From an uncultured Candidatus Saccharibacteria bacterium (GTDB taxonomy: Bacteria; Patescibacteriota; Minisyncoccia; Phycocordibacterales; PALSA-1337), in assembly GCA_964365535.1 (NCBI GenBank), contig CAYIQG010000001.1, positions 1 through 50,208 of the forward strand: a DNA stretch of 50,208 nt, written 5' to 3'. The position numbers and the translations under genes were made by a program. Below the pieces are notes generated by a model, which searched no databases, was not told the DNA's origin, and saw nothing but the letters and a program-made list of their open reading frames with translations. Shown one piece after another: positions 1,416 to 33,380 of this stretch (positions within the stretch are counted from its first letter, which is position 1; every line of letters begins with the position of its first letter).

Positions 1416-1577
1416 GCGGGAAGAGTAAGACACTCATTTCTTTTGAGTCGAGTACTCTTGTTCGAGCGTCGTAGAAATTACTAGATTTTCTAGTCGCGCC
1501 GTCGATCTAGAAAATCTTGCAATTTCACGGCGCGAGTTACGCAGACTCAAGAGAAATGAGTGTCTTACTCTTCCCGC
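1416..1577. repeat. Foldback element copy A: 34-bp arms (one T.G pair) around a 94-nt core
   Basis: Arm 1416-1449 gcgggaagagtaagacactcatttcttttgagtc is the reverse complement of 1544-1577 except at one position. The core 1450-1543 is homologous to the cores at 13276-13369 and 16230-16324. Confidence 0.85.
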
Positions 1578-2085: not shown

Positions 2086-4623
2086 TTACTTCAACTCCCC
2101 CCAATTCATACCAATATGAATCTGCGCCGTCATGGCAATTCCTTTTGTTTCTTTGGGACCAACAATGCCTTCCATTATTTTCTTTATCTCTTCCGCAATC
2201 TCTTCCGCCTTATCCTCACGAATCTCAAAAACCAATTCATCGTGAACTTGCAATAGTGGAAATGCAATATCATCCAACTTTTTTTCTATAAAATATTCAT
2301 CGATTCGAACCATGGCCAATTTTATAATATCCGCTTCAGTGCCTTGAATAGGCGCGTTTATCGCCATTCTCTCGGCTTGCGCCTTGATGTACGGAATTTT
2401 GGAATAAATGCCCTCAAAATATCGTCTTCGACCGAACAAAGTCTCCGTGTATCCCTTCTCTGCGGTTTCAACTTTTACTTTATTTAAATACGAAGCGAGA
2501 GTGGAGAAGGTATTGAAATAATCATTCAAGAATTTCTGCGCTTCCTCGCGGGTCGAACCGAGATTTTGTTTCAAGGCGAGAACTCCCATGCCGTAAATAA
2601 TGCCAAAGTTGATCACCTTTGCCTGACGGCGCATTTCCGGAGTAATGTTTTTTGGTTCAACATTAAAAACAAATGAGGCAACCTGAGTATGCACATCCTC
2701 GCCTTTTTTGAAAATATCAATCAACTTTTCGTCGCCGGACAAAAAAGCGGCGATACGCAATTCCATCTGCGAATAATCAAGCGCGACAAGTTTGAATCCT
2801 TTTTCGGCGATGAACGCCCTGCGAATGGCTCGACCGAGTTCTGACTTCACTGGAATATTCTGCAAATTAGGCTCTTGTGAAGCCATTCTGCCGGTAGTCG
2901 TCCCTGACTGGAGAAAATGCGTATGTAGTCTATCATTCGCGTCGAGCAAAGGCGGAATAGCGTCAATATAAGTCCCGAGTAGTTTCGCCAATTCACGGTA
3001 CTCGAATATCATCGGAATCACAGGATGCATATCGCGCATCTTTTCCAATTCCGATTCTTTTGTGGAACGCGCGCCGCCGGCGGTCTTCTGTTGATTTTTC
3101 ACTTTCAACCCCAATTTGTCAAAAAGAAATTCGCCTAATTGTTTCGGTGAATTGATATTAAATTCGCCGCCCGCTTCATTCCATATTTTCTTTTCAAGTC
3201 CCTCGATAACCGAATGATATTCTTTCGATAATTCTTTCAATAAAACGCGGTCAACTTTGATTCCTCTTTCGTCCATCTTGTGAACTGCTGGAATTAAAGG
3301 TAATTCAATTTGCTCATAGACTTTTCTCAAATTTCTCTTGTCCAACTCCTCGAAAATAGCTTTTCTCGCGACTTCAAAGTCATTCGTATCCGCAAATCGC
3401 AAAATATCATCTAATTTTGGGTTTGTTATGTTGGAATCAATAAGCCATAAAGCGATTGCGACCTTTTCCAAATCGTCAACCGCTCCCTCTTCGGCGCGAC
3501 GAAGTGTCTTCGTTTCGCTCCGCTCCGCTCCGCGAAAGTCGACACTTGTCGCCGCCTCAACGGTCGCGGCTGGCGAATTACTCAAAGCATTTATTCCGAT
3601 AACCTTCTCAAACCTCTGTGGCAATGTCCGAAACTCCAATTCCCGCCATAACGCGCTTATTTTTTTCAAGTCTAGATTTTCCTTGAATGTTTTCTCCGGC
3701 AAAACAAAATCAATAGGTACATCCAAGCGAATAGTAGCTAGTGTTTTACTAAACTCCGCCTCCTCTTTATTATCTTTCAATAATTGAATAAGCCTTGGAC
3801 TAATTCCCGCCTTTTCAAACTTCTCTTCATGGCCAGATTCTAATTCTTGGTACATATTCTCTATCGAGCCGAATGTTGTAATCAATATCGTAGCCGTCTT
3901 TTCGCCTATTCCTTTTATTCCCGGGATATTATCAGACGGGTCCCCGCGAAGACCTTTGTAATCTGGAATGAGTTCGGGACCGAAACCGAAACGAGCGTTA
4001 ACGGCCTTTTCATCGTACATTATCGTGTCGTTTATTCCCTTCTTTAGGGTATAGACTTGCACCTCTTTGCCGCGAATGAGTTGCATGGTATCCATATCGC
4101 CAGACGCGATTATTATTTCTATACCATAAGATTCGTTGACCGCGTCGCTTCTGGCGGGAACAGCTCTTCCTCGCTCGGCTTTCGCCTCCTCGGAAGACTG
4201 TTCCCGCCCAAGCGACGCGGCTGACGATTTGCTTGAAGTCATTTGTTGAACAATAGTCCCGATAATATCATCCGCCTCAAAGCCCTGCTTATCGTAAATT
4301 GGAATATTGAGCGCCTCGAATATCTTACGCGAACTGAGCATCTGCGCTACGAGGTCGTCTTCGGCTTTTTTGCGGCCGGCTTTGTATTCTTTGTAGGCTT
4401 CGTGGCGATAGGTCGGACCTTTGACATCATAACAAGCGACAATATAGTCTGGTTTCAAATCTTCGATTATCTTTATGAGCATTGCCGAGAGACCGTAGAG
4501 AGCCCCGGTCGGCTCGCCTTTCCTGGTCGTGAAATCAGGCAGGGCGTGATAGGCGCGATGCAATATAGCATGCGCGTCCAATAGCACTAATCTTTTCTTT
4601 TTCCCCGCGTATGTCTTTGCCAT
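2086..4623 (-). CDS. polA: DNA polymerase I (5'-nuclease plus polymerase domains, reduced central region)
   Basis: N-terminal 5'-3' exonuclease motifs (LLDAHAILHRAYHA, GIKGIGEKTA). C-terminal family-A polymerase motifs (LVALDYSQMELRI, RRQAKVINFGIIYG, LQVHDELVFE). Confidence 0.95.
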   Translation of the reverse strand: MAKTYAGKKKRLVLLDAHAILHRAYHALPDFTTRKGEPTGALYGLSAMLIKIIEDLKPDYIVACYDVKGPTYRHEAYKEYKAGRKKAEDDLVAQMLSSRKIFEALNIPIYDKQGFEADDIIGTIVQQMTSSKSSAASLGREQSSEEAKAERGRAVPARSDAVNESYGIEIIIASGDMDTMQLIRGKEVQVYTLKKGINDTIMYDEKAVNARFGFGPELIPDYKGLRGDPSDNIPGIKGIGEKTATILITTFGSIENMYQELESGHEEKFEKAGISPRLIQLLKDNKEEAEFSKTLATIRLDVPIDFVLPEKTFKENLDLKKISALWRELEFRTLPQRFEKVIGINALSNSPAATVEAATSVDFRGAERSETKTLRRAEEGAVDDLEKVAIALWLIDSNITNPKLDDILRFADTNDFEVARKAIFEELDKRNLRKVYEQIELPLIPAVHKMDERGIKVDRVLLKELSKEYHSVIEGLEKKIWNEAGGEFNINSPKQLGEFLFDKLGLKVKNQQKTAGGARSTKESELEKMRDMHPVIPMIFEYRELAKLLGTYIDAIPPLLDANDRLHTHFLQSGTTTGRMASQEPNLQNIPVKSELGRAIRRAFIAEKGFKLVALDYSQMELRIAAFLSGDEKLIDIFKKGEDVHTQVASFVFNVEPKNITPEMRRQAKVINFGIIYGMGVLALKQNLGSTREEAQKFLNDYFNTFSTLASYLNKVKVETAEKGYTETLFGRRRYFEGIYSKIPYIKAQAERMAINAPIQGTEADIIKLAMVRIDEYFIEKKLDDIAFPLLQVHDELVFEIREDKAEEIAEEIKKIMEGIVGPKETKGIAMTAQIHIGMNWGELK
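3493..3556. repeat. Imperfect GC-rich palindrome with (CGCTC)x3 centre, inside the polA coding sequence
   Basis: ggcgcgacgaagtgtc ... cgctccgctccgctccgcg ... gacacttgtcgccgcc. It encodes the RGAERSETKT segment. Boundaries are approximate. Confidence 0.4.
4140..4220. repeat. 81-nt palindromic element inserted in frame in polA
   Basis: Arms ccgcgtcgcttctggcgggaacagctcttcc (4140-4170) and ggaagactgttcccgcccaagcgacgcgg (4192-4220) are reverse complements apart from 2 small indels or mismatches, with a 21-nt loop. 81 nt equals 27 codons. Confidence 0.7.
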
Positions 4624-4707
4624 ATCTTCATTGTATCAGTAAATTTGACCGTAAGGGATACTCCCTCGGTTATCCACATTATCTTCCACATTTTTCCCTG
4701 CTCCGAA

Positions 4708-4716
4708 TGCTATAAT
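4708..4716 (+). promoter_or_regulatory. Extended -10 promoter TGCTATAAT, 9 nt upstream of the ATG at 4726
   Basis: A near-identical block (gaatgctataat..ccttgaaatgcc) recurs at 7715-7740. Confidence 0.45.
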
Positions 4717-4725
4717 GTCCTTGAA

Positions 4726-4776
4726 ATGCCAAGCGACTTTCTCAAAACTCAAATTTTATTGGAAATTTATAAATAA
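4726..4776 (+). pseudogene. 16-codon relic (MPSDFLKTQILLEIYK) of the 7737..8081 gene family
   Basis: The first 9 codons match MPNDFLKTQ of the 114-aa paralog, and the same promoter block lies upstream. The body appears to be deleted. Confidence 0.4.
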
Positions 4777-4781
4777 AAAAT

Positions 4782-5264
4782 ATGAAAAACAATTCATCTA
4801 CTCTTGCTCGAATAGCTGTTCTATCTGGACTCGCTTTGGGGGCATTTGCTTTGTCGGCTTTAGCGGATTGGAATAATGCACCGCCTAATCCACCTGGTAG
4901 TAATGCGGAAGCGCCAATAAATGTAGGTTCAGTTTCCCAAACAAAGACTGGCTCTCTCATCATAGGAATACCGTCATCAGGAACTCCAAGCCCAGCAAAA
5001 TTAACAACAATAAGTGCTGATATTGAATCGGCCACTAATATTGCCACGTTCTACGCGAACAACTTATTGCAGGGCATTGCTATTGGATATAACACTATAA
5101 GACAAACTAATATTGCATCGCCACTCATACTTGATGCTAAAGTGGTCCGCGTTGTCGGAGGTCCAATAGCAACGGAAAAGGGGCTTATTATTGAGACGCG
5201 CACTTCGGCTCAAGGCGATCCCGCGAGTCCTGAAACCGGCAGAATGTGGCTCATAACCAATTAA
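4782..5264 (+). CDS. Secreted protein, paralog family A (conserved N-terminal module, variable C-terminus)
   Basis: Signal peptide MKNNSSTLARIAVLSGLALGAFALSALA, then the PP..N.EAPINVGS..Q.KTG module shared with 8104..9153. Confidence 0.75.
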   Translation: MKNNSSTLARIAVLSGLALGAFALSALADWNNAPPNPPGSNAEAPINVGSVSQTKTGSLIIGIPSSGTPSPAKLTTISADIESATNIATFYANNLLQGIAIGYNTIRQTNIASPLILDAKVVRVVGGPIATEKGLIIETRTSAQGDPASPETGRMWLITN

Positions 5265-7681: not shown

Positions 7682-7718
7682 TAAGCAAGTAAATGTAATT
7701 TCTTATTTTCCGCGCGAA

Positions 7719-7727
7719 TGCTATAAT
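7719..7727 (+). promoter_or_regulatory. Extended -10 promoter TGCTATAAT, 9 nt upstream of the ATG at 7737
   Basis: Duplicate of the 4708-4716 block. Confidence 0.45.
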
Positions 7728-7736
7728 ACCCTTGAA

Positions 7737-8081
7737 ATGCCCAATGATTTTCTCAAAACACAATTACTTCCGGGCCAACCGATACCTCATCATGAGCATC
7801 GCAAATTGATTGTCGTGCTTATTGTGGTTTTGGTCGTGGCGATCATCGTGGGTGTTGGTTTGTGGTGGAACGCTTCACAAGTGCCATCGCAACAGGTACC
7901 AACATCGGTCGCCGTTGACCAGCGAACTCAGATGGTCAATCAAGCTCTATTGACTTTGAAAGACGCAAAGCCAGCCACGCAAACTGAAATACAGACCGCG
8001 TTGAAACAACTTTCTAAGTCGAAAGTGAAAGTAACGCAGAGTCAAATAGATGAGGCGTTGAATCAATTAAAAGCGCGATAA
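7737..8081 (+). CDS. Single-pass membrane protein (114 aa)
   Basis: TM helix LIVVLIVVLVVAIIVGVGLWW followed by a hydrophilic helical tail. Its promoter and first codons are duplicated at 4704-4755. Confidence 0.7.
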   Translation: MPNDFLKTQLLPGQPIPHHEHRKLIVVLIVVLVVAIIVGVGLWWNASQVPSQQVPTSVAVDQRTQMVNQALLTLKDAKPATQTEIQTALKQLSKSKVKVTQSQIDEALNQLKAR

Positions 8082-8103
8082 TTATTAATTTACAAATACA
8101 AAA

Positions 8104-9153
8104 ATGAAAAACAATTCACCTATCCTCGCTCGAATAGCCGTTCTATCAGGACTCGCCCTAGGAGCATTCGCTTTGTCGGCTTTAGCCACCGGCACATGGA
8201 CCGACGCGCCATCCAGCCCGCCTGACAATAACACGGAAGCGCCGATAAATGTTGGATCTATCTTTCAAATAAAGACTGGGAAATTTGCACTGGGAGCGCA
8301 AAAAACTTATAGTCCCGAATCTGGTCGTCCTCTATTGGATATAAATGGAATCGCCTCGATTAATGCTCTAGTCGCAGGAAGTCTAACAGTAGGTGGAACA
8401 CCAACAAGTGGACAAGTACTTGCCGCACAGACTTTGGTAAAAGATGCTTCAAATAATGTTATAGGGGCAACAGTCGGATGGGCGACTCCAAGCGGGAGTA
8501 GTGGAACAACAGCTTCGCTGGACGCGTTATGCAGGACTACCTGGATTCCTCCATACAGAGTGGACTGGGGGGGAATAAGTGATGATGCTACTATCCGTAG
8601 ATCTATTACTCCTGTAAGCTTGCTTATTAACGGCAGGAATATTTGCACGGATGATAATGGATGTACTTATCGAATATGGCAGACGAGTCCAACATATCCT
8701 CAAGGATTTAATTTTTACGGTACATCACCAATTATGTTTCGACAGGTTGCATCTGGTAAAATTGGAGCGGGTAAATGGATAGATGCGTTAGATAATCAAA
8801 AAGGTACGAATGGTGATGATGTTAGAACAGATTTAATTGGAGGATCATCGAATTATGGTACATTTTTAATGGATGATCTAGATTACGAAGGAAACCTCAC
8901 CGACAAACCATTTATTACTAATGTAAATGACATAAAAAACCCAGGAAGTTCAAGTTTCTTGTGGGAATATCCAAACTTTACTCCATCCATAACTATAAGC
9001 AATGATATATGGTGGTCAGATGGGGTGGGTGGAAGCGTAAGAGAGGCACGTTCGTATTCTGAGCACTCTCCAGATTGGGTAAGTTTTGAGAAAGTATATT
9101 ATGATGGTGAGATTGATCCTGTCGTAGACATTGTTACCATTTGCGATTTATAA
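8104..9153 (+). CDS. Secreted protein, paralog family A (349 aa)
   Basis: Signal peptide MKNNSPILARIAVLSGLALGAFALSALA and the EAPINVGSIFQIKTG module, roughly 85% nucleotide identity (by eye) to 4782.. over the signal-peptide region, then divergence. Confidence 0.8.
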   Translation: MKNNSPILARIAVLSGLALGAFALSALATGTWTDAPSSPPDNNTEAPINVGSIFQIKTGKFALGAQKTYSPESGRPLLDINGIASINALVAGSLTVGGTPTSGQVLAAQTLVKDASNNVIGATVGWATPSGSSGTTASLDALCRTTWIPPYRVDWGGISDDATIRRSITPVSLLINGRNICTDDNGCTYRIWQTSPTYPQGFNFYGTSPIMFRQVASGKIGAGKWIDALDNQKGTNGDDVRTDLIGGSSNYGTFLMDDLDYEGNLTDKPFITNVNDIKNPGSSSFLWEYPNFTPSITISNDIWWSDGVGGSVREARSYSEHSPDWVSFEKVYYDGEIDPVVDIVTICDL

Positions 9154-13216: not shown

Positions 13217-13242
13217 TTATTCTTGCTTTCTTATCGGCTTCA

Positions 13243-13402
13243 AAAGTCCCCACACAATATTTGTTTTTTGCGTCCGAGAACTTGTCTGAATGGAGTATAA
13301 ATTGCTAGAAATATTAGCGACACTGTTAGGAGCCAATATTTCTTGCAATTTAACGACATGAGTCTCGCAGGACGCAAAAAACAAATATTGTGTGGGGGCT
13401 TT
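13243..13402. repeat. Foldback element copy B: 28-bp perfect arms (33 bp with one T.G) around a 94-nt core
   Basis: 13248-13275 ccccacacaatatttgttttttgcgtcc is the exact reverse complement of 13370-13397. The core is about 95% identical to copy C. Confidence 0.9.
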
Positions 13403-13480
13403 CCCCTTTGCGTTATCCACAAAAAAGATTGCTTTTTGAATAGGCGCGGCGTTAGTATGGCGACAGAAGAAGACAAACAA

Positions 13481-13646
13481 AAAGAGCACATGAATCTCTA
13501 AGCAATATCTCCTGGCGTGATGCCAGAAGCGAGGTATATTCCCGAGGATAATTCCAGTCACTTCTTTATGAAAAAGAAAACCAGAATGTCCTTAGAACTA
13601 TACCCAAACCTGGGAAGGCCATTGCTTAGAGGTTCACGAGCTCTTT
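13481..13646 (+). ncRNA. Candidate rod-shaped structured RNA (6S-like architecture), identity unknown
   Basis: 13481-13506 pairs with 13621-13646 (26 positions, 3 non-Watson-Crick). Inner helices are gaggtata../..tataccc and GAGGAUA/UGUCCUU (with G.U pairs valid only on the + strand), plus a terminal hairpin ttcttt-atgaa-aaagaa. It lies in a 550-nt gene-free gap. Confidence 0.3.
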
Positions 13647-13765
13647 CAAAAGGCTTAAATTATACCCGGGGTAGTTTCGAATATAAAACCCCCCGGGATG
13701 AACCAAAGAACACATAACTCAGTGCCCCTCAATCCGTCTGAGCATGCTAGCATAAACATATTTAT

Positions 13766-14776
13766 ATGTCAAGGACTTCTGTCAAACCAAATAACGACGA
13801 AAAAGAGGCTGGTTTCCTAGATCAGACCTTGCGCCCTTCGCGCTGGGAAGATTATATTGGTCAAAAGAGCGCGAAAGATAATCTTCATATACTGCTAACT
13901 GCCGCCAAAGAGCGCAAACACCCGCCGGAACATATGCTTTTTTATGGTCCGCCGGGACTTGGCAAGACTACTCTCGCTCATTTGATAGCAAAAGAAACTG
14001 GAGCTCAGATGAAAGTCACTTCCGGACCGGCCATTTTGAAAGTGGGAGATTTGGCGTCTGTCGTAACAAATCTATCAGCCGGAGACATACTTTTCATAGA
14101 CGAAATTCACCGCCTAAACAAAGCTATCGAAGAAGTCCTCTACCCCGCTATGGAATCGGGTACCCTTGATATTATTATAGGCAAAGGACCATCGGCTAGA
14201 ACAATTCAGCTAGACTTGCCTCCATTTACCCTAATAGCCGCCACTACCAGAATCGCCATGATTTCAGCTCCGCTTCGCTCGCGTTTTTCCGGCGGCGTAT
14301 TCAAGCTAGAATTCTATTCTAATGAGGAAATCGCCGAAATTATCCGCCGTTCCGCCAAGATTTTGAAAATAAATATTCATGAAGGGGCTGTGAACGAAAT
14401 CGCCACTCGTTCCCGCTTCACTCCGCGCACCGCGAATTTTCATCTCAAGCGCTGTCGAGACTACGCGCAAATCAATAAAGTTCCCCTTTCGAAAGATATA
14501 GTCGAAAAAGCTCTGGTCATGCTAGGCGTTGATACTCTGGGACTGACCAATGCCGACCGCGATATCTTGAAAGTGATTATCAACAAATTCGGTGGCGGTC
14601 CCGTCGGCTTGAACACCATCGCCGCCGCGCTTTCTGAAGAACAGGCAACCGTTGAAGAGGTGTATGAACCGTATTTGATTCAACTAGGACTGTTAGAGCG
14701 CACACCGCGCGGTAGGACGGCGACTGACCGAGCTTACGCGCATTTGGGCGTGAAGGGTGTAGCGAAATTATTATAG
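13766..14776 (+). CDS. ruvB: Holliday junction branch-migration ATPase RuvB
   Basis: LRPSRWEDYIGQ, Walker A GPPGLGKTTLA, Walker B ILFIDEIHRL, and a typical size of 336 aa. Confidence 0.95.
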   Translation: MSRTSVKPNNDEKEAGFLDQTLRPSRWEDYIGQKSAKDNLHILLTAAKERKHPPEHMLFYGPPGLGKTTLAHLIAKETGAQMKVTSGPAILKVGDLASVVTNLSAGDILFIDEIHRLNKAIEEVLYPAMESGTLDIIIGKGPSARTIQLDLPPFTLIAATTRIAMISAPLRSRFSGGVFKLEFYSNEEIAEIIRRSAKILKINIHEGAVNEIATRSRFTPRTANFHLKRCRDYAQINKVPLSKDIVEKALVMLGVDTLGLTNADRDILKVIINKFGGGPVGLNTIAAALSEEQATVEEVYEPYLIQLGLLERTPRGRTATDRAYAHLGVKGVAKLL

Positions 14777-16192: not shown

Positions 16193-16361
16193 CGCACCTC
16201 GCGAGAGGAACATTTCATTTCTCACAGCCGAGAATTTTGTTTGAATGGAGTATAAATTGCTAGAAATATTGGCGACACCGTTAGGAGCCAATATTTCTTG
16301 CAATTTAACGACATGAGTCTCGCAGGCTGTGAGAAATGAAATGTTCCTCTCGCGAGGTGCG
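16193..16361. repeat. Foldback element copy C: perfect 37-bp arms around a 95-nt core
   Basis: 16193-16229 cgcacctcgcgagaggaacatttcatttctcacagcc is the exact reverse complement of 16325-16361. The inner hairpin is 16254-16306 with a 13-nt loop. Confidence 0.9.
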
Positions 16362-23801: not shown

Positions 23802-24032
23802 AAGTTGTCTCCAGTATATACCTGTTTATAATTCTGGGAACTTGTGGAGAGGCGTAAAATATGTTGATAAGTTGTGGAGAACTTTTTTTGAGTCTCATTG
23901 CGAAGCCGACACTTCCCGGAGTGAGCCTTAGCGGAGCGGAGCGATTAATGGCTCACGGAGGGAATGTGTCGGCGAAGCAAAAGAGACTCAAAACTTGTAT
24001 AATTACCCAAAAAATGTAATACTCTACAAATC
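23802..24032. promoter_or_regulatory. dnaA/rpmH divergent control region: candidate second oriC half
   Basis: Two TTGTGGAGA repeats (23842-23850, 23872-23880) spaced 30 bp apart, each one mismatch from the reverse complement of TTATCCACA. A long hairpin lies at 23888-23991. Confidence 0.4.
23888..23991. repeat. Long imperfect palindrome (about 40-nt arms) with GCGGAGCGGAGCG in the loop
   Basis: ttgagtctcattgcgaagccgacacttcccggagtgagcc / ggctcacggagggaatgtgtcggcgaagcaaaagagactcaa. It shares the GACACTT and (GCGGA)n motifs with the polA insert at 3493-3556. Confidence 0.6.
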
Positions 24033-24540: not shown

Positions 24541-25284
24541 ATGTACAACACTTTTATTTTCCTGCCTTTATATAATGGACTAGTTGGCATAATGGACATT
24601 TTACCATGGGTTGATGTTGGTTTGGCGGTAGTTATATTTACGATTATTGTTAAATTGGCGCTATTTCATCTCTCGAAGGCTTCTATTTTGACGCAGATTA
24701 AGATGAAAGAGGTTGAACCGGAAGCGAATAAAATAAAAGCGCAATACGCGAATGATAAACAAGCGCAAGCCTTGAAGGTTATGGAGCTTTATAAGACCAG
24801 GAATGTTAAGCCGTTTGCCGGTGTTTTACTTCTCTTTATTCAATTACCTATTTTATTGGCGCTTCTTTCTGTTTTTTATAAGATTATACCCACAATCAAT
24901 CCGGAATATCTTTATTCTTTTATTTCTGTTCCTATTGTAAAAACCCAATTTCTTGGACTTATCGATTTGACCAAACCGAGTTTTATTTTGGCTATATTTA
25001 CCGCGATTGCTCAATTTGTGCAACTTCACTATTCCCCAGCCATGAAACAGGCGAAGGTTGTGGCTGTGAATAATAAAATAGGTATTTCCCCATTGGATTT
25101 CGCGGCATCTATGAATAAACAAATGAAATATATGTTACCTATTTTGGCTTTTGCTTCCACATACTGGCTTATTCCCCTGCAATTTCCGCAGGCGGCCTCT
25201 ATTATCGCTCTCTATTGGTCGGTGAGCGCCCTATTCACTCTTGGTCAGGAATTGATAATACGCAAACGGTATTATTCTAAATAG
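24541..25284 (+). CDS. yidC: YidC/Oxa1-family membrane protein insertase (short type)
   Basis: Polytopic, with MKEVEPEANKIKAQYANDKQAQALKVMELYKTRNVKPFAG and LFIQLPILLAL, typical of short YidC proteins. Confidence 0.85.
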   Translation: MYNTFIFLPLYNGLVGIMDILPWVDVGLAVVIFTIIVKLALFHLSKASILTQIKMKEVEPEANKIKAQYANDKQAQALKVMELYKTRNVKPFAGVLLLFIQLPILLALLSVFYKIIPTINPEYLYSFISVPIVKTQFLGLIDLTKPSFILAIFTAIAQFVQLHYSPAMKQAKVVAVNNKIGISPLDFAASMNKQMKYMLPILAFASTYWLIPLQFPQAASIIALYWSVSALFTLGQELIIRKRYYSK

Positions 25285-26602
25285 ACGACACCAAATCAAG
25301 TGACCATAAGGAGAGGTCGTTTTTGTTCATGAAGAATAGGAAATCGTCATTGTTATCGAGTTGCAAATTGAATGTGTCTATCAGGGCATTGCCTTGATTC
25401 AGAAGGTCAGCCACCTGATGTACTTCGCCGGTATTCCCGTTCAAGAGCCAAATATTATCAATGAATGAAGCTTTGCCGAGATACCAATTATCAGGATATG
25501 TGCCACTTGGTATCTGTGAGGAAACGCCGCAATAGACTTGTTCTTTGAATTTGGAACTCCAAACGCATTTGTTCGCAAGCGTTCGAAATATGATATCAAT
25601 TGATTTTTGGCTTTTAATATCATATACGGTAGTTTCAATCTTATCGCTTGTGGAAATTGAGTCTGAATATATTACTTTCGTCGCATCCCTACTCACTTTC
25701 GTCGTAAGTCCCGGAATATTTCCCAGAATCTCGCTTATTGCGCCGGTTTTGACATTTATAAAATACAAATAACCGGAATAGTTGGCACTGGCTTTCGTGG
25801 TAATGGCGATTGTATTTTCTTCCGGCCATTCCGTGGTTAGCTGGGTGAATGGCAAATCAAATAATTGGACTTGCTTGGTGCCGTCAAAATTGGAAATATA
25901 GCCGATGGCGCGGTTATTTTCATTGCTTATAACTAGAATCTTATCTCTTTTTGGCGAAGAAGCTACCGCGATAATGTTTCCGGAGATTATCTTACCTTTC
26001 AATTCATAATCAGTTTCGGTTATTTGTGTGGTTAGGTTGGCTTGTACTGTTGTTTGTGTTGTCGTGCTTGATTTCGCGGCGGTTGTCGTCGCTACAACAG
26101 CGCGCTTCAATATATTAGTTATGACTGTTGTAATCCTATCTCCTCTATCGCTTAAATACTGGCCTATGAATGATGTATCGTTCTTGTTCCACCAACTATT
26201 ATATACTCGCGGTAATAATGTATTGGAAATCGTTGTAATATCGAGCGAATCTCCGCGCGCCTCATAAATATTTCCCCTACCCCTATCTATCCATCTAACG
26301 ACCGTGGTGCTAGCGGTCGTGCTTGCTCCATATCCACCTACAGGTGTTGAGCTCAAAAGGCGCAAGGCTGGTAATGGTACGATTTTGGGTATATTTATTG
26401 TAGTGGTCGCATTCCCCTGCCCCGTAATTGTTTTTGTAGTAGTTGAAACCGGCCGATTGAGCGGTACGAAACCAGTTGTTGGCGCTTGATTTGGTATATT
26501 CGGAGCTGTTGTTGGAACACGCAAGAACATATACCAATAAACACCGCCGGCGATGATGAGGATGATTACCATAACTATTACAATGTCAATAATTTTTTTC
26601 AC
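25277..26602 (-). CDS. Membrane-anchored extracytoplasmic protein with Thr-rich linkers (T4SS-like locus gene 11)
   Basis: GTG start overlaps the upstream stop by 1 nt. N-terminal TM IIDIVIVMVIILIIAGGVYWYMF, then a beta-rich body. No family recognised. Confidence 0.65.
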   Translation of the reverse strand: MKKIIDIVIVMVIILIIAGGVYWYMFLRVPTTAPNIPNQAPTTGFVPLNRPVSTTTKTITGQGNATTTINIPKIVPLPALRLLSSTPVGGYGASTTASTTVVRWIDRGRGNIYEARGDSLDITTISNTLLPRVYNSWWNKNDTSFIGQYLSDRGDRITTVITNILKRAVVATTTAAKSSTTTQTTVQANLTTQITETDYELKGKIISGNIIAVASSPKRDKILVISNENNRAIGYISNFDGTKQVQLFDLPFTQLTTEWPEENTIAITTKASANYSGYLYFINVKTGAISEILGNIPGLTTKVSRDATKVIYSDSISTSDKIETTVYDIKSQKSIDIIFRTLANKCVWSSKFKEQVYCGVSSQIPSGTYPDNWYLGKASFIDNIWLLNGNTGEVHQVADLLNQGNALIDTFNLQLDNNDDFLFFMNKNDLSLWSLDLVSSI

Positions 26603-27891
26603 TAAGGTTTAGTGTGAAATTTAGTGTTCTTTATATCTTGTTCTGCGATTTTCTTTTTTTCTTGTAATTGTTTTAGAAGTTCCGGATCGTAATTTGGCGT
26701 TGCGGTGTAATCATTAACTATTTTATTTATAGCTTTATATGAATCTTCTTGAGCTTTAGATAAGGCTTCCTGTTCTGTCATTAATGTTCCGTCGATCCTT
26801 TTGTATGTAGTTCCTCCCAATAAATTAACATTAAAATCAAGCAAATCTTGCTCACTTGCTTGATATACCAATGCTTGTTGCTTAGTAATTTCGATCACTG
26901 CTTTGGAGTAAAGGATATAGTTCGCTGATTGATTTCTTTGCTCCTCATTATTAAATAATTCAGGATTGTTTAGATAATACATTCTGGTAGTTTTTCCGAA
27001 ACTTTCCAATAAATTGTCACAATATTCAGGCCTTCCCGTTGGTTGGCATTTGCGAACTAATGAATCTGAAACACCCTTAATAGTTTGAAAACCGATATCC
27101 CCTGTAACTTTGTCCCTCGCGGCAATTTTTTGTGCTCTCTGGGCACACAGGTCGTACATTTCAGGATCATCAGCCCATTTTAACACATCTTTGCATATAT
27201 CATCTAAACTCAAGATTGAGTCAAATACACCTACACTAGGGTATTTACTCATAATCTCATCCTCGATGTCTTGTATATCTTCGTCGAAACCGGCAATCAG
27301 TTCCTGATCCCAAATAATATTTGATTTTGCGCTTGCTATATCAGCATCAAACTGCGCCGCTTCCTTATTCAACTGGTCAAATAAAGCTGTTGGCGACTGC
27401 TTCATCTTATTTATCTTATCTTGTACATCTTTTGGTATTGTGATACTCGCGGGAATCGCCACCAATTTCGGATTGACGGTTTTTAAGATAAGAAAAGCCG
27501 CGAGGACCATTAATAGTCCGTATATAGCATTCTTGAATTTTTCCAAGCCGGCCTTACTCTGTTGCCAAGAATCCGTGGTCATATATAAAAATCCACCATA
27601 AACCATCATGAATACCGCCGCCACGGCGGAAAGGGCTATAAGGAGATTGAAGGCGTAACTGAAGAAACTGCCAAGATCGATATTTTTCACTTGCCCATTA
27701 TCACAGACTTGATTGGACCCTGGAGTAGGAATACACGGTAATGGCTCAAGTAAAGTGTATGTTTTTCCTGCATTTCCCTGCGCTTGGGTGTGAGGAATCG
27801 CGCCGGAAATACTTAAAAGAGAAAATAGCAAAATAACAAATACCAAGATGACCAATACTTGTCTATTTTTTTGTTGGATTTTATATGCCAT
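26602..27891 (-). CDS. T4SS-pilin-like membrane protein with long coiled C-terminal extension (locus gene 10)
   Basis: Signal peptide, then YTLLEPLPCIP...C... followed by two hydrophobic helices (FNLLIALSAVAAVFMMVYGGFLYM and IYGLLMVLAAFLILKTV). This resembles the T4SS_pilin/VirB2-TrbC-like arrangement. Confidence 0.5.
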   Translation of the reverse strand: MAYKIQQKNRQVLVILVFVILLFSLLSISGAIPHTQAQGNAGKTYTLLEPLPCIPTPGSNQVCDNGQVKNIDLGSFFSYAFNLLIALSAVAAVFMMVYGGFLYMTTDSWQQSKAGLEKFKNAIYGLLMVLAAFLILKTVNPKLVAIPASITIPKDVQDKINKMKQSPTALFDQLNKEAAQFDADIASAKSNIIWDQELIAGFDEDIQDIEDEIMSKYPSVGVFDSILSLDDICKDVLKWADDPEMYDLCAQRAQKIAARDKVTGDIGFQTIKGVSDSLVRKCQPTGRPEYCDNLLESFGKTTRMYYLNNPELFNNEEQRNQSANYILYSKAVIEITKQQALVYQASEQDLLDFNVNLLGGTTYKRIDGTLMTEQEALSKAQEDSYKAINKIVNDYTATPNYDPELLKQLQEKKKIAEQDIKNTKFHTKP

Positions 27892-28921
27892 TATAATTAT
27901 TTAACGAACTGGTAGCGGTTTTCGAACTATTCGCCGAGAATACTGCCGTAAAGCCGTTCTGCGCGCCTTGTAAAATCTCATTGGTATTTCTGATTTGCAA
28001 TTGAATATTAGAAGAACCAGCGGTACCTTCCGGAGCGCGCAGAACAATAGATTGACTGGCTAATAAAGCCATTTGTTCAATGGAGTTTACGAGCCACGAG
28101 AAAGAAAGGTCACCGACGCTATCCGAAGGCTTATTGAAACCATAAGGAACAGCTAATACTGACAGTTCCCTACTTTTACCAAGACTAACGCCGTTGCCAA
28201 TAGCTTTATTATACATTGGTCCGTATAGCGGGTCGTTATTGTAGAATGAAATATAAGGGCTTTGCGCTTGTAAGAGAATGACTTTCTCGGCTTGAGCGCT
28301 GCCATCTCGAGTGGTCGCGCGAACATTGAGCACTCTTTGTCGTGGAATAATATCATCTTGCCATGAGAAAACTTGCTTACCATAGCCGCCTTGGTCCTGG
28401 ACAACCTTGGAATCTTTTGTCCATTGATATATCAGGGTTTGCGGAGCATATTCTTTTCCGGAAGAATCGGCGATATGAGGTATAGCAATCACTCGATAAA
28501 TATTTTGATATGAAAGAGGTATTTTCCCCAAGAAAAATGGTGGAACATACCCTTCATTCTCCACGATAATATCAATATTACCGGAACCGATATCTATGCT
28601 TGATTTGAGCTCTCTTCCATTAGGAATGCCGGCGATTATTTCCACATTCAATTTCTTGCCAAGAGCGGGAGCTTGCACTTGAATAGAGGTAATACCCGCG
28701 CCTTTTTGATATAGAGAACCATTCAATGTCCAGATAATATTGGCTGAATTCAAATCAACGCTATAGCTTTCGGCGGTGACGATTATTTGTTGTCCTGGAA
28801 CTGGATTTTCAGTGGAGAGCCTCAAATCTATTTCTTTCAGAGCGGAAGACGGCATGCCTTGGGCATTAGCCATAAATGTAAAAATTAAAAAGCAAAATGT
28901 AAAAGTTACGAAAGCTTTCAT
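27881..28921 (-). CDS. Secreted beta-rich protein (locus gene 9)
   Basis: The ATG at 28921 gives the signal peptide MKAFVTFTFCFLIFTFMANAQG. It overlaps the downstream gene by 11 nt. No family recognised. Confidence 0.65.
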   Translation of the reverse strand: MKAFVTFTFCFLIFTFMANAQGMPSSALKEIDLRLSTENPVPGQQIIVTAESYSVDLNSANIIWTLNGSLYQKGAGITSIQVQAPALGKKLNVEIIAGIPNGRELKSSIDIGSGNIDIIVENEGYVPPFFLGKIPLSYQNIYRVIAIPHIADSSGKEYAPQTLIYQWTKDSKVVQDQGGYGKQVFSWQDDIIPRQRVLNVRATTRDGSAQAEKVILLQAQSPYISFYNNDPLYGPMYNKAIGNGVSLGKSRELSVLAVPYGFNKPSDSVGDLSFSWLVNSIEQMALLASQSIVLRAPEGTAGSSNIQLQIRNTNEILQGAQNGFTAVFSANSSKTATSSLNNYNGI

Positions 28922-29208
28922 TGATGCTATTTTATCAATTTTGTGGAAAACTTGCGAGGGGATATTAACTCTGTATAATGTGGGCATGATAATAAGTATA
29001 CGACCAATGATTAGGGGGTGGTTCTTGAAACCCCAAGCGATTTCTGGAATTATGCAAAGTATCGGAGAAATCTTCCTCGGTTCACTTTTTGTTGGACCGA
29101 TCTTCTCCCATAACTTTGAAGTGGAGTCGACGATTTTAGGTTTCTTTGCAATAATATTATCATGGTCTGCTTGTATATTATTAGCAAAGGAGTAATAATA
29201 ACATTATA

Positions 29209-29331
29209 ATGGGTAATAATATTTATAATGCAATAAACATGATTTATATTCTCGGAGCCTTGCTTACTATTGGTTTTATATTACTTGGCATTCTAGCCAA
29301 GGTGAGTGATAATAAAAAAGACAACAAATAA
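29209..29331 (+). CDS. Possible 40-aa single-TM peptide on the opposite strand inside the locus gap
   Basis: Hand translation gives MGNNIYNAINMIYILGALLTIGFILLGILAKVSDNKKDNK, with GGAG 16 nt upstream. It may be spurious. Confidence 0.25.
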   Translation: MGNNIYNAINMIYILGALLTIGFILLGILAKVSDNKKDNK

Positions 29332-29332
29332 A

Positions 29333-29779
29333 CTATTTATTTGATTGCAATCCCCCGCTAGGAGCGCGAACACCGCCTTGATTCAAAGGTATTTGTTGTT
29401 GGCGCGGTGGGTTCACGCCGTTTTGCACCAAGCTACTTCCGGTTTTTTTGCCTCCAATACCGGGAACTGAAATGCCGGTTTTATCTTCCGCGCGTACCAT
29501 GACTATTACCGCTATCATACCAGCTAGAATCAATGGGAATTCTTGAACAATAGGTATCATTTCGGCTACCATTGAAATCAATGATGTTGCCAATCTGCGA
29601 GCATTTAATAATCCACAGCCAACTTTCCAAAGATATATGCTGGCGCAAATCCAGAATATTGGTCCGACAATATCGCCGACAAAAGGTATTAAACTAAATA
29701 GGTCAGCTAAGGCGGCAAGCGCGACCCAAAATACTATTCCGGCAGTTCCTATTCGATATTTAGGCTTTATCTCTTCCAT
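29333..29779 (-). CDS. Small polytopic membrane protein with Gly/Pro/Gln-rich tail (locus gene 8)
   Basis: 3-4 hydrophobic helices (GIVFWVALAALADLFSLIPFVGDIVGPIFWICASIYLW...). It lies 6 nt downstream of the VirB4-like gene. Confidence 0.65.
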   Translation of the reverse strand: MEEIKPKYRIGTAGIVFWVALAALADLFSLIPFVGDIVGPIFWICASIYLWKVGCGLLNARRLATSLISMVAEMIPIVQEFPLILAGMIAVIVMVRAEDKTGISVPGIGGKKTGSSLVQNGVNPPRQQQIPLNQGGVRAPSGGLQSNK

Positions 29780-29785
29780 AAATAA

Positions 29786-31600
29786 CTATTGTCCCGCGTC
29801 CTCCAATTGTTTCTTTGCTTCCTTGATCGCCACAATCTGCTGGGGATTCGTGGTAATAATCTGGTCTTCAGTGTAAGAGCTGACGATTTTTATGGCGACA
29901 TGCTTCAAGCCGACGAAAAATATGCCTTCGCCGACATCAGATTCGAGTAGTAAATATTTTTCTTCATCCGTCAAATTGAAAGTCTTTTGAACATAATCAA
30001 TAACGCTCGGCGACTGTTTCAGCAGAATCTGTATAGAAGAGTTCGTTACAATCGGCATGCCGTATGGAGACTTCAAGAAATCATCAACATCCTGGGTAAT
30101 AGTCGCGAGCCCGAGGAAATATTTTCGTCCTCTTTTCGCCAAACTGAACAGGAACGAGGCCGTATCTTCGCTTTTCATCATCCACCACGCTTCATCAATA
30201 ACTAGAAGGCGCTTTCTCAAATTCTTACGGATAGCATTCCAAATATAGTGAGTGATGAGATACATTGCCACCGGTTTGAGCTCATCTTCCATATCGCGGA
30301 GTGAAAAGACGACAAACTTCTTATTGATGTCAATGTTTGAAGGGCGATTGATGAAGCCGGACCATGTGCCCTTCGTGTATTTCGACAATCTTTCCACCAG
30401 AGAGTCCGCGCCTTCCATTCCAGCCAAGACAAGTTCAAAATCGGATAAAAGCGGCGGTTCAACATTGGCGAAGTTCGATTCGGCGGTAATATCTTTCAGG
30501 GCGTAAGTTTCCGTTATGGCTCGATCAATGATGGCGTCTTCTTCTTGAGACAAACCGCCTAACATTATTCGGAATAATCCAACGAGATTTATGATATTGG
30601 AACGAAGAACATCGGTGGCGCTTTCATCCTCGTGCGCTATCGGCAAATCGAAAGGATTCACATGGTGTTCTGAATTCAATGAAATATTGAAATATTTTCC
30701 TCCTGTCGCCTCGGCCATATACTCATATTCTTTTTCCGGGTCAATAACTATGACTTCCGTGTCGAACATCAGAGTGCGCAATATTTCCAGCTTGGTGCAA
30801 TAAGATTTTCCGGAACCGGCGACGGCGAAAGTGACGGAATTGTAATTTTCTAGAAGGAAACGGTCGAATAGGACTAGCGAAGAATTGTGCCTATTTATGC
30901 CGTACAGTATCCCCTTATCAGAAGTTAAGTCGAATGAAACGAATGGAAATAGGCTGGAAAGCGGCGATGAATTGAGTTTCGAATGAACGGCCAATTGGTC
31001 ATCCGCTATAGGCAAAACGCTCTTGAATCCTTGTTCTTGCTGGAATAGAGCTGGTTTGACATAGACCAGTTTTGATTCGAGAATAGATTTCACTTCTGAT
31101 TCAAGTTTGTCTAGTTCGCCTTCCGAATCGGCAAATAATGTAATATAGACGCCTACATCGAATAGTCTTTCTTGGGCTTGCATGAGTTGGTCGCGAAGAT
31201 TTTCTAAATCTTGATAAGCGGTATCGAGAGCCGGGTCGCGCACCAGCCCTTTTTCTTCTCTGCGAGAAATTTGGCTTTGTACTTCGGCGACTTTCTTTTG
31301 GAAATGGCGCAATATTTTCGCGGTATCGACTGGATGTATGAAAATCGAGACATTGAATACTTTGTCGAGGTTTATTATCGGCGCGAACCAGCTTTCTTGC
31401 AGGAATCTTGGATATGAAATCACGAATAATGTGCGACCGACCTTCTCCCCCAAATTCAATTCTTTCGGACTTATTTTGAGCGCCGAGGGAGCGATAATAT
31501 CTTTCAATTCCAAAACGCCGGCCTGGTATATTTCCTCGGGCATGATGGAAACGATTGGCGAAGGTTCCTTTTTCTTGAATAAATTGCTGAATATGTTCAT
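29786..31600 (-). CDS. VirB4/TrbE/CagE-like type IV secretion ATPase
   Basis: Walker A FAVAGSGKSY, Walker B LLVIDEAWWMM, GLATITQDVDDF. The ATG at 31600 overlaps the upstream stop (ATGA). The upstream extension to 31699 looks non-coding. Confidence 0.85.
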   Translation of the reverse strand: MNIFSNLFKKKEPSPIVSIMPEEIYQAGVLELKDIIAPSALKISPKELNLGEKVGRTLFVISYPRFLQESWFAPIINLDKVFNVSIFIHPVDTAKILRHFQKKVAEVQSQISRREEKGLVRDPALDTAYQDLENLRDQLMQAQERLFDVGVYITLFADSEGELDKLESEVKSILESKLVYVKPALFQQEQGFKSVLPIADDQLAVHSKLNSSPLSSLFPFVSFDLTSDKGILYGINRHNSSLVLFDRFLLENYNSVTFAVAGSGKSYCTKLEILRTLMFDTEVIVIDPEKEYEYMAEATGGKYFNISLNSEHHVNPFDLPIAHEDESATDVLRSNIINLVGLFRIMLGGLSQEEDAIIDRAITETYALKDITAESNFANVEPPLLSDFELVLAGMEGADSLVERLSKYTKGTWSGFINRPSNIDINKKFVVFSLRDMEDELKPVAMYLITHYIWNAIRKNLRKRLLVIDEAWWMMKSEDTASFLFSLAKRGRKYFLGLATITQDVDDFLKSPYGMPIVTNSSIQILLKQSPSVIDYVQKTFNLTDEEKYLLLESDVGEGIFFVGLKHVAIKIVSSYTEDQIITTNPQQIVAIKEAKKQLEDAGQ

Positions 31601-32235
31601 GTTATTTGTATCGGTTTCTCTGTCTCCCCAGGATTGAACAGCTTGTAGAATAATTCTACCACCTCCTCGGTTCCCAATTCCGCCGTGCGGACGCCACAAC
31701 GCACGAGTCCCTGCTCGACTACCGAGACCCGCTGTTCGAGTTGAGTCCTATATTCCTGGAATTGTTCATCCAAGGTAGGCGCTGGCGCGGCTCCTTTTCG
31801 TTTCGACAGGAATTTCGATATTGGGTTGTGGCTGGCGGTCATCATTGGCGGGTCGTAAGGGATGACGACGAAGAAGCTTTTTGTCATTATGTTCGTATTT
31901 TCCACGAAAGTTTTGACAAATTCTATATATTCACGCACTTGAATTTTCATCAGCTCGGTTATTTGTTCTTTGTAACGGCCTTCCAATAGGGCAATATATG
32001 GTCTAATATCTAACTTTTTTGATTGAATTACTATTTGTATCGAAAAATCCAATGAATTCAGGAAGTTTTGGAATTGCATCATAATAGCATTTTGTTCATC
32101 GGAAGATTTCAGGGCGAAATTTAAAGATGATGCCAAGACTACTGACCTCATACCGCCATTGCGCAAGACTATCACTCCATCGCGGATTTCTTGCACGGGC
32201 ACGAATTCTTGAGTTGTTTGGGATTTTGTCGCCAT
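31597..32235 (-). CDS. Stand-alone protein resembling the N-terminal (non-ATPase) domain of Gram-positive VirB4 homologs
   Basis: QEFVPVQEIRDGVIVLRNGGMRSVVLASSLNFALKSSDEQNAIMMQFQNFLNSLDFSIQIVIQS matches my memory of VirB4 N-domain starts in Firmicutes conjugation systems. It is translationally coupled to the ATPase. Confidence 0.5.
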   Translation of the reverse strand: MATKSQTTQEFVPVQEIRDGVIVLRNGGMRSVVLASSLNFALKSSDEQNAIMMQFQNFLNSLDFSIQIVIQSKKLDIRPYIALLEGRYKEQITELMKIQVREYIEFVKTFVENTNIMTKSFFVVIPYDPPMMTASHNPISKFLSKRKGAAPAPTLDEQFQEYRTQLEQRVSVVEQGLVRCGVRTAELGTEEVVELFYKLFNPGETEKPIQIT

Positions 32236-32237
32236 TT

Positions 32238-32675
32238 TTATTTCTGGTTCTTGTTGGAATAAACACTCTCTTTAATATCCAAACTCCACGCCAAATCTTT
32301 GAGCTTGCTGTCGGAAATCTTCGGAACCATGAGCGAGGCGTAACTTTTCGCGTCTTTGATTGCTCCCTCTGCCGTTTGCGGTTTTATATTTTCTTTTTTC
32401 TGCCAAATGAAGAGCTTACTGCCTCTATAATAATTGAACGCTGATTCGGCGATATTGACTAATGGAAAGTGATTATAGACTTTATAGAAAGCCAAAGCCA
32501 CGGAAATTGCTATTATTATCAGTATTGGTATGAATGACCAAAAGAGACTGCCGAGCATGACATAGACGACAAATGATAATCCTCCCCCGCCGGCCAGATA
32601 TATGAATTGCTTTAAGGTAAGGGGTCCGAAAATTTTATCTTCGACTTCAATGAATTGAGGTACTTGGTATCGCAT
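32238..32675 (-). CDS. PrgI-family (VirB3-like) membrane protein
   Basis: MRYQVPQFIEVEDKIFGPLTLKQFIYLAGGG followed by two TM helices, the characteristic PrgI-family opening. Confidence 0.65.
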   Translation of the reverse strand: MRYQVPQFIEVEDKIFGPLTLKQFIYLAGGGGLSFVVYVMLGSLFWSFIPILIIIAISVALAFYKVYNHFPLVNIAESAFNYYRGSKLFIWQKKENIKPQTAEGAIKDAKSYASLMVPKISDSKLKDLAWSLDIKESVYSNKNQK

Positions 32676-32699
32676 TTGTAGTATTATACCGTATTTTTT

Positions 32700-33380
32700 C
32701 TAGAATGGCTCACGATACGGGTCTTTCTCATAACTTTTCTTTGGGATTGGGGGTGTCGGCGTGATAGGTGTGATTGGTTTTTCAGGTTGAGGCGGAACTT
32801 GTAGCTTTTGAATTACTGGCAGTGGAACAGTTTGTGTCTTTTCGATTTGAGTTGGTTTACTCGGACTAGTTTCTATTGGTAGATTGGGCGGTACTACCGG
32901 TGTTATTTTCTTTTCGGCTGTTGCCGGCGGACTTTCCAGTAAATTATCTGCTTGAATGTTTTCTACGCCTACCATTCCCAAGCCATTTCCATTCTTGCTA
33001 TTATCACCCTCTTTCAATATTCTGAAATCCCCAATGCGTTCGAGATCGGAGATTTCAGTTTTATTCTCTTGAGTATCTGATTGCATCTGTGATTTGATTG
33101 CATTAAATATTTCTTTATTAACTTCGGTAGCGATCTCGTCTGCCAATGATCGATTGATTTCTAGATACTTAATTATGTCATTAATAAAAGAAGAAGATTT
33201 CGCTTGACCTTTCAGTACCTCCCTAACTTGAGCATCAAGTTCACCGATTTGATCTATATGAAGACTAAACATTTCTCCAATCTTTTGGCATGAAGCAAAG
33301 ATTTTCGGGGAATCAGAAATATCTTTATAGATACCGAATGAATTCATTTGTGTATTATTCATTTGCATAATATTTACCAA
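32700..33380 (-). CDS. Hypothetical protein with Pro-rich C-terminal half (locus gene 4)
   Basis: Helical N-terminal half, then TPVVPPNLPIETSPSKPTQ...PPQPEKPITPITPTPPIPKK. It overlaps the upstream gene by 7 nt. Confidence 0.6.
   Translation of the reverse strand: MVNIMQMNNTQMNSFGIYKDISDSPKIFASCQKIGEMFSLHIDQIGELDAQVREVLKGQAKSSSFINDIIKYLEINRSLADEIATEVNKEIFNAIKSQMQSDTQENKTEISDLERIGDFRILKEGDNSKNGNGLGMVGVENIQADNLLESPPATAEKKITPVVPPNLPIETSPSKPTQIEKTQTVPLPVIQKLQVPPQPEKPITPITPTPPIPKKSYEKDPYREPF

Follow-up and report, generated by a model that had tools for sequence, protein, structure and literature searches.

The window, i.e. the whole stretch of 50,208 nucleotides analysed here, carries three related elements, termed A, B and C, all of them on the + strand (Table 1). 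Each measures about 160-170 nt and consists of a core of 94-95 nt, which is enclosed by near-perfect inverted arms of 33-37 bp. Copy A is located at the junction of tsaE and holA and is antisense to both genes; its right arm overlaps the final 13 nt of tsaE (- strand), within the last four codons and the stop codon. Copy B follows pilB, and copy C separates yebC from ruvC.

Table 1 Coordinates of the three elements of the window and of their parts.
Feature	Position	Strand	Remarks
Copy A	1416..1577	+	most diverged core; covariance model 88.3 bits on +, 24.7 bits on -
Copy A, left arm	1416-1449	+	
Copy A, core	1450-1543	+	
Copy A, right arm	1544-1577	+	
Copy B	13243..13402	+	26 nt past pilB stop codon; covariance model 107.7 bits
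Copy B, left arm	13243-13275	+	
Copy B, core	13276-13369	+	
Copy B, right arm	13370-13402	+	
Copy C	16193..16361	+	between yebC and ruvC, 20 nt from each; covariance model 109 bits
Copy C, left arm	16193..16229	+	distal ~20 nt GC-rich and copy-specific; proximal 17 nt (TTTCATTTCTCACAGCC) shared with other copies
Copy C, core	16230..16324	+	based on alignment, pair counts and covariance model
Copy C, loop adjoining the arms		+	GA / GCA
Copy C, helix P1a	16232-16234 with 16319-16321	+	short, next to the arms; covariation
Copy C, asymmetric loop	5' side 16235-16244; 3' side 16315-16318	+	3' side GAGU
Copy C, helix P2	16245-16251 with 16308-16314	+	7 bp, contains tandem G.A
Copy C, inner hairpin P3	16254..16306	+	invariant base including U.U mismatch
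Copy C, right arm	16325..16361	+	exact reverse complement of the left arm, 37/37

Three copies with paired arms at these positions had been described in a first-pass annotation, and we could confirm them by means of a repeat finder, by folding and by comparing pattern matches with shuffled sequences. The repeat finder paired 37/37 arm positions in copy C, 33/34 (97%) in A and 28/28 in B, the last being extendable to 32/33 (97%), which upholds the description of the arms as reverse complements with near-perfect pairing (37/37, 33/34, 28/28). In folding, every element forms a single long hairpin (z-scores of -13 to -18 relative to shuffles), and two core patterns matched three times each in the window, with 0.00 matches expected from shuffles. 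As annotated, the cores of the window copies begin with GAG and finish with CGCA, four transitions and one indel distinguish the core of B from that of C, and the inner hairpin with its T.T mismatch was found in all copies. The placement near the stop codons of pilB, yebC and tsaE was also correct, at +26 nt for B and +20 nt for C, with A overlapping the end of tsaE.

Syntenic contigs of relatives were located via their RuvC, TsaE and PilB homologues. An orthologue of copy C is present in L057/L058 from Hainich well H41, where RuvC is 96% identical. The yebC|ruvC gap, which measures 209 nt in the window, amounts to 8 nt in L062 (RuvC 87%) and to 10 nt in L059 (81%). At the site of copy A, L071/L072 have overlapping and L073/L074 abutting tsaE and holA genes (TsaE 73-74%); the site is empty in these relatives, from which it follows that the insert in the window comprises about 179 nt. 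Compared to L072, 5 nt are replaced in the window by TCAGA, the hairpin and up to 12 nt. Neither a palindrome nor either of the arms was found at the empty yebC|ruvC and tsaE|holA sites of the relatives. Since tsaE and holA abut in relatives with an empty site and no trace of an arm is left there, both arms came with the insert. The element is thus present or absent at orthologous sites, and it arrives as a unit including both arms. The proposal of a small non-autonomous mobile element is therefore well founded: the site is filled in the window and in the relative with 96% RuvC identity, and sites are empty at 87% and 81% RuvC identity and at 73-74% TsaE identity. In four syntenic 20-kb loci (RuvC 85-86%) the covariance model detected no copies of the family; relatives at this distance carry a sister family instead. 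Among the PilB relatives (90-91%), a 102-aa ORF occupies the place of copy B. A coiled-coil ORF of about 100 aa lies directly after pilB in L053 (7171-7473), L069 (7105-7413) and L070 (2044-2352), and is absent from the window (13217-13766), which has copy B instead.

Further members were sought by pattern scans of species-representative genomes and of metagenomes and with the covariance model. True members were recovered in the pattern scans of both collections only from Patescibacteria. The contigs from Hainich groundwater or aquifer that carry copies are L019, L034 (two copies, one of which was added by the covariance model), L041 and L057, and a contig from a second sample, L045, carries a copy B identical to that of the window. 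The Paceibacterota MAG SO_2016_GW1_41 contains at least four copies, all at contig ends, and four of them have one common 32-nt right arm and different flanks. Two copies in a Saccharibacteria MAG have cores which are 100% identical over 113 nt, and arms which are unrelated beyond 4 nt (AGCC/GG). Cores from different class-level lineages are about 80% identical or more, and several cores within one habitat are 93-97% alike despite diverged arms. The flanking genes are all housekeeping genes (holA, tsaE, pilB, ruvB, yebC, ruvC, rplT, ndk, gatA, ssb, efp, lepA and mreB).

A scan of the whole window against Rfam 15 at the gathering threshold returned one tRNA only, and copy C, searched at E-values of up to 10, gave only sub-threshold microRNA-hairpin and other chance matches. 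In IMG/VR viral contigs, two patterns produced chance matches in coding sequence and the covariance model produced none; blastn searches of phage and plasmid collections were likewise without a match, and we found no described Patescibacteria hairpin repeat in the literature. The roughly 130 kb of related sequence that we examined yielded no transposase, no HUH/Y1 enzyme and no reverse transcriptase. An autonomous parent was considered and rejected, because the 5' and 3' ends of the core were not found kilobases apart, and a lone 12-mer match inside dnaN is due to chance. The Rfam scans and the copies in other Patescibacteria bear out the earlier claim of a multi-copy family absent from Rfam. 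Judging from these searches, the repeat family appears to be previously undescribed and, as far as seen, restricted to Patescibacteria (CPR bacteria). The first-pass annotation had named two observations that would speak against its finding, namely a lack of further copies in the genome or in relatives and empty sites already carrying the full palindrome. Other copies were found and orthologous empty sites are without palindrome, so the finding stands, with the caveat that L053 has a different hairpin family at yebC|ruvC.

The structure of the core was evaluated on an alignment of nine distinct copies from three lineages, in which pairs were counted on a hand-drawn structure. In this structure 90.6% of the alignment cells are paired, and 13 of the 32 core pairs, located in three helices, are altered on both sides, a value matched in 0 of 500 shuffles. 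When the 3' partner was slid along as a control, every measure was 3-7 times lower than for the true core pairing. With the covariance model, the + strand scored 88-113 bits compared to 25-39 bits for the - strand, which defines the folded strand. Helix P1a comprises 3-4 bp across copies, and its middle pair is A-U, G-C or U-A. The asymmetric internal loop carries an invariant 5' UGUYYGA opposite 3' GAGU. Helix P2 reads AUGGAGU/ACGACAU in B and C, GCGUCGU/ACGGCGC in A and GCUGAGU/ACGAUGC in another version, and its central G.A/A.G juxtaposition is converted to standard pairs (U-G, C-G) in copy A. The base of P3 (AAAUUGC-U-AGA / UCU-U-GCAAUUU) is invariant and keeps its U.U mismatch; the distal stem of P3 covaries, and its apex is of variable length. 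The element had been pictured as a rod with a large central bubble. This is right as far as the inner hairpin is concerned, but the segments of 24 nt and 18 nt beside it are not wholly unpaired, since P1a and P2 covary, and the unpaired part shrinks to the asymmetric internal loop. The notion of a structured single-strand module, in turn, is borne out by the covarying helices. We conclude that the core is a strand-specific folded structure under selection, which is shown by the covarying helices and the conserved non-Watson-Crick juxtapositions. A small ORF of 23 codons in the cores of B and C was discarded as a candidate after inspection, because neither A nor the Saccharibacteria and Paceibacterota copies contain it.

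Concerning the arms, the core-proximal ~17 nt (TTCATTTCTCACAGCC|GAG) can be aligned among the left arms of the Hainich copies, while the distal ~17-20 nt are copy-specific and follow loosely two styles. The arms had been called essentially unrelated, which has to be corrected: only their distal ~17-20 nt are copy-specific, and the proximal ~17 nt align once more copies are added. The arms of copy C and of the L034b copy have 15 identical proximal bases and are unalignable from there on. Distal arms are richer in GC than proximal arms and than the genome overall. Of the 422 arm pairs counted in twelve elements, 412 are Watson-Crick pairs, the others being 6 G.U, 3 A.C and 1 other pair. Stems maintained at the RNA level usually tolerate many more G.U pairs. 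We found no second match to the arm sequences in the window or in any related locus examined, and for this reason a function of the arms as guides or spacers was rejected.

The copy C orthologue in L057 allowed a direct comparison of arm changes. Relative to the window, its left arm shows a 1-nt deletion, a G>A and a C>T change, and its right arm shows the exactly complementary deletion, C>T and G>A, so that 3/3 arm changes are mirrored in this one orthologous pair. In the same comparison, 2/95 positions of the core are changed (adjacent to each other and unmirrored) and 3/40 positions of the flanks. Hence, in this orthologous pair, the arms change at about the rate of the flanking intergenic sequence, and each change occurs in both arms. 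A mirrored deletion is very hard to obtain via independent mutation and selection, which points to copy correction at the DNA level, i.e. intrastrand template switching. Template switching is an established route by which perfect stems are made and maintained (PMC8794818; PMC7202029). A search for close orthologues of copies A and B, meant for the same comparison, found none; the nearest TsaE is 74% identical and the site there is empty. In L053 and L069, a polA hairpin unrelated to the family differs by about seven arm changes, all of which are mirrored, and both of its arms are coding.

The elements occupy short intergenic gaps, usually 0-26 nt from a stop codon. With respect to the neighbouring gene, 4 are sense, 5 antisense and 2 convergent, and both orientations relative to dnaA occur in L053; a fixed orientation relative to either transcription or replication was rejected. 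No promoter or terminator is consistently attached to the element. The suggestion of a terminator hairpin family did not hold, since no T-run follows A and C and the orientation to the upstream gene is mixed. The elements also failed the test for intrinsic terminators, with stems of 33-37 bp and an interior of 95 nt, and only B overlaps a small terminator-like site. The trinucleotide TCA occurs within -8 to +4 of the left boundary in 8/9 independent copies compared to 1/9 at the right boundary (background 0.18, p about 1e-5, with a search window set once the data had been seen). TCAGA at the tsaE|holA site belongs to the inserted DNA and is absent from the empty allele. A-runs and T-runs frequently enclose the distal arms, as in AAAG-CCCCACCC...GGGTGGGG-CTTT, and TA-rich hexamers are located a few nucleotides upstream of several left arms. 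The arm-encoded tail of TsaE (TGREE*) has a length typical of native tails.

Other hairpin families were encountered in the window and its relatives. The sister family of L053 has an 86-nt core with perfect arms of 33-38 bp, the same architecture and common junction words (GAGGAC...GTTCCGCA). It is found at three other sites, all of which are empty in the window, one being located between two convergent genes that have overlapping stop codons in the window. A second hairpin family of about 95 nt (window 4133-4227) is inserted in frame in polA (ORF 2086..4623, - strand), where it falls in a gap of the match to the 5'-3' exonuclease domain. It recurs at L019:7437-7525 (inside ligA), L034:8611-8699 and L041:4505-4591; the differences in the outer stem between copies are perfectly compensated, and it is reminiscent of Rickettsia palindromic elements. 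The in-frame polA hairpin of L053 (3137-3316) and L069 (3342-3499) is a different one, with arms of 21-32 bp and a 116-nt interior. A third family (window 23886-23993) is located between dnaA and the rpmH/rnpA side and combines a conserved inner hairpin of about 66 nt (GCCGACACTTCCCGGAGTGAGCC...) with copy-specific outer arms. This conserved centre with a local outer stem gives it the same layout as the family under study. It also occurs at the yebC|ruvC site of L053 (9896-9985), where its outer arms are unlike those at 23886-23993 of the window. The outermost 8 bp of the L053 copy (CGCTCCCA/TGGGAGCG) are similar to the outermost 8 bp of copy C (CGCACCTC/GAGGTGCG), and L053 and the window have the left flank CGTC.G and the right flank GTATAAT of the yebC|ruvC site in common. 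The contigs L005 (3810-3920) and L006 (5689-5808) of the Paceibacterota MAG carry a further hairpin family with perfect arms of 37-41 bp and a spacer of 37-38 nt. Among the loci examined, long perfect inverted repeats were confined to Patescibacteria. An inverted repeat of 23 bp in the holA-tsaE gap of L069 (1000-1400) encloses a tRNA-like 3' half (GGGTTCGATTCCCGTCCGCTCCACCA); it was rejected as a family member.

Several additional features of the window were recorded. Between copy B and ruvB, a region of about 170-200 nt (13447-13646) is about 95% identical to L053, L070 and L059, far above its surroundings. It has a closing stem (13481-13506 / 13621-13646), internal hairpins and some covariation, and gave no Rfam match even at E-values of up to 1. 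This region is probably an unannotated conserved small RNA; that it might be a 6S-like RNA is a guess. Positions 4704-4864 and 7715-8186 are 86% identical, a similarity that takes in the sequence upstream of two neighbouring genes (ORFs 4782..5264 and 8104..9153) and their first ~28 codons. The two genes seem to be paralogues with a common leader and a common N-terminal signal-like segment. Finally, a type IV secretion-like cluster (T4SS pilin, TraG/VirB4-like ATPase, PrgI) among ORFs without a Pfam match spans 25277-35392 on the - strand, just beyond dnaA, rnpA and yidC, and the arrangement is repeated in relatives.

We consider it probable that the three loci are copies of a non-autonomous, hairpin-forming mobile interspersed repeat. 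The core would serve a trans-acting protein as its recognition module. This protein would act on the folded single strand, which could be either DNA exposed in replication or repair or a transcript, and would copy or move the element. The arms would be needed merely as a stem, and their complementarity would be kept by intrastrand template switching in replication rather than by slow compensatory selection or target duplication. Near-identical cores next to unlike distal arms would probably result from core exchange or conversion between copies, or from remodelling of the arm ends. An effect on the host, for example as an RNase III site or as a hairpin at mRNA ends in either orientation, would be secondary. 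The Saccharibacteria pair with identical cores and unrelated arms is awkward for the transposition of whole units.

A host-functional structured RNA, i.e. a family of small RNA genes or a cis-acting intergenic or 3' element (processing site, stabiliser or protein-binding platform), is a less likely explanation, to which we nevertheless give some weight. Its core would bind a host protein and its long stem would be a substrate of the RNase III type. The covarying, strand-specific core is in line with this, as are the interchange of tandem G.A with Watson-Crick pairs in P2 and at the apex of P3, the core identity of about 80% or more between class-level lineages and the TA-rich hexamers just upstream of several left arms. 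The strong conservation of cores within a habitat, which remain 93-97% alike though the arms have diverged, could likewise reflect a host function rather than recent copying. However, the orientation is mixed (4 sense, 5 antisense, 2 convergent) without a conserved promoter or terminator alongside, close relatives lack the element at the same sites and across 20-kb syntenic regions, G.U pairs are nearly absent from the arms (6/422), one MAG shows a recent multi-copy burst at its contig ends, and there is no Rfam match. That the element would instead serve the host as a DNA site, a protein-bound hairpin or cruciform for replication, repair or chromosome organisation such as a signal of the single-strand initiation or primosome type, appears highly improbable to us. 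Such a site would fit the strand-specific fold, the essentially exclusive Watson-Crick pairing of the arms and the location of the window copies on one strand at most about 20 kb from dnaN/dnaA as judged by synteny, but opposite orientations occur on one side of dnaA in L053 and in a pair in L016 that is 1.8 kb apart, and the sites differ between close relatives. We know of no multi-copy chromosomal signal of this kind from Patescibacteria.

The origin of the arms leaves room for another explanation, in which only the core and a few adjacent bp move as a cassette and the distal arms are local; we regard it as unlikely. The core might land at the tip of a palindrome that was already there, for instance a terminator-like hairpin past a stop codon, or the arms might grow after insertion, when template switching copies one flank in inverted form. 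The latter route amounts to a delayed form of the inverted target duplication put forward in the first-pass annotation. The identical cores of the Saccharibacteria copies with arms unrelated beyond AGCC/GG suit this explanation, and the abrupt end of identity in the arms of C and L034b suggests recombination or a local formation of arms more than it suggests gradual divergence. Further points in its favour are the GC-rich distal arms, often located between A-runs and T-runs, the arms that commonly finish at or overlap stop codons and the native-typical length of the arm-encoded TsaE tail TGREE*. Moreover, two different families, that of copy C in the window and the third family in L053, have similar outermost 8 bp and flanks at one locus, and by this likeness arm ends may be shaped by the locus. 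Against a local origin, the empty tsaE|holA sites consist of abutting or overlapping genes without a palindrome, the empty yebC|ruvC sites measure 8-10 nt, and neither of the arms is present at either site. The sister-family insertion between convergent genes in L053 has arms that match neither conserved coding flank, four Paceibacterota copies in one MAG carry the same 32-nt right arm between different flanks, and arm sequences are without a second match in the window or in related loci. Inverted target duplication as originally proposed finds no support in the same empty sites, in the sister-family arms or in the common right arm. As a bolder version, to which we assign only a slim chance, the core would be a cassette precisely inserted by a putative enzyme acting on folded single strands, and fold-back or template-switch synthesis would then make the stem from local DNA or lengthen it across such DNA. 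If true, this would be a mode of transposition that makes its own copy-specific inverted arms, and it would account for why cores can be identical and arms unrelated in one genome, why identity within arms breaks off sharply, why arm ends halt at coding sequence and why two different hairpin families have similar outer stems at one locus.

The favoured reading, a mobile interspersed repeat, invites comparison with known systems. REPINs, which are mobilised by RAYTs, are likewise intergenic, hairpin-forming and non-autonomous, measure ~100-170 nt and are scattered among housekeeping genes, and both they and the family described here probably act as a folded single strand. In REPINs, compensated changes across the hairpin are common (PMC3116915). 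They differ in that the REP 16-mer ends are conserved and the spacer less so, whereas here the centre is conserved, with many invariant columns, and the ends are variable. No REP-like GTAG motif was present in the sequence examined, and no RAYT (Y1 HUH transposase) was found among the ORFs of the window or the flanking ORFs of related loci, which cover a fraction of each genome. ERIC/IRU elements are reportedly imperfect-palindrome intergenic repeats of ~127 bp or more with a conserved central part, species-variable locations and variable orientation. The family shares with them the imperfect palindrome, the conserved centre, the differing locations and the variable orientation. Unlike it, ERIC elements belong to an enterobacterial host phylum, show no detectable sequence relationship and have arms conserved family-wide, whereas the distal arms here are copy-specific and near-perfect.

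Correia/NEMIS and other MITEs are also small, multi-copy and gene-adjacent and form a long hairpin when transcribed, but they have conserved terminal inverted repeats and target-site duplications, whereas the outer arm ends of the present family differ in every copy. No direct repeat flanks any copy as a target-site duplication would, and at tsaE|holA 5 nt were replaced. The PATEs of IS200/IS605 are similar with respect to the lack of terminal inverted-repeat recognition and of target duplication, the strand-specific hairpin with a mismatch and, possibly, the short motif at one boundary (here TCA, on the left). In contrast to the single rod of the present family they have two separate subterminal hairpins, no tnpA was found here, and TCA at tsaE|holA seems to be part of the insert and not of the target; only the L053 sister family may have two small terminal hairpins. 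Integron attC sites differ in that the R''/R' boxes at the base of their hairpin (RYYYAAC ... GTTRRRY), which frame a variable centre, are not conserved across our copies, in which the centre and not the base is conserved. Rickettsia palindromic elements are comparable as hairpin repeats in a reduced genome, and the polA gene of the window holds the second family in frame; the family under study, however, is found only between genes and has no sequence relationship to them. By this comparison, the family appears to resemble REPIN, ERIC and MITE repeats in its working but fails their defining tests.

Patescibacteria have very small genomes with little non-coding DNA, and yet a 50-kb window contains three copies of this family and two other hairpin families. 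Such repeats break assemblies, as seen from the contigs of one MAG that stop inside the element, and can alter gene ends, as in the tail of TsaE. The family represents an unusually clean natural case of stem upkeep by mirrored mutation, including a mirrored deletion. If arm changes are mirrored via copying, compensated changes in long perfect stems need not indicate selection on RNA structure. The covariation-supported structure of the core, in turn, provides a handle for finding the partner protein, which would be a candidate for a new enzyme handling single-stranded DNA or RNA.
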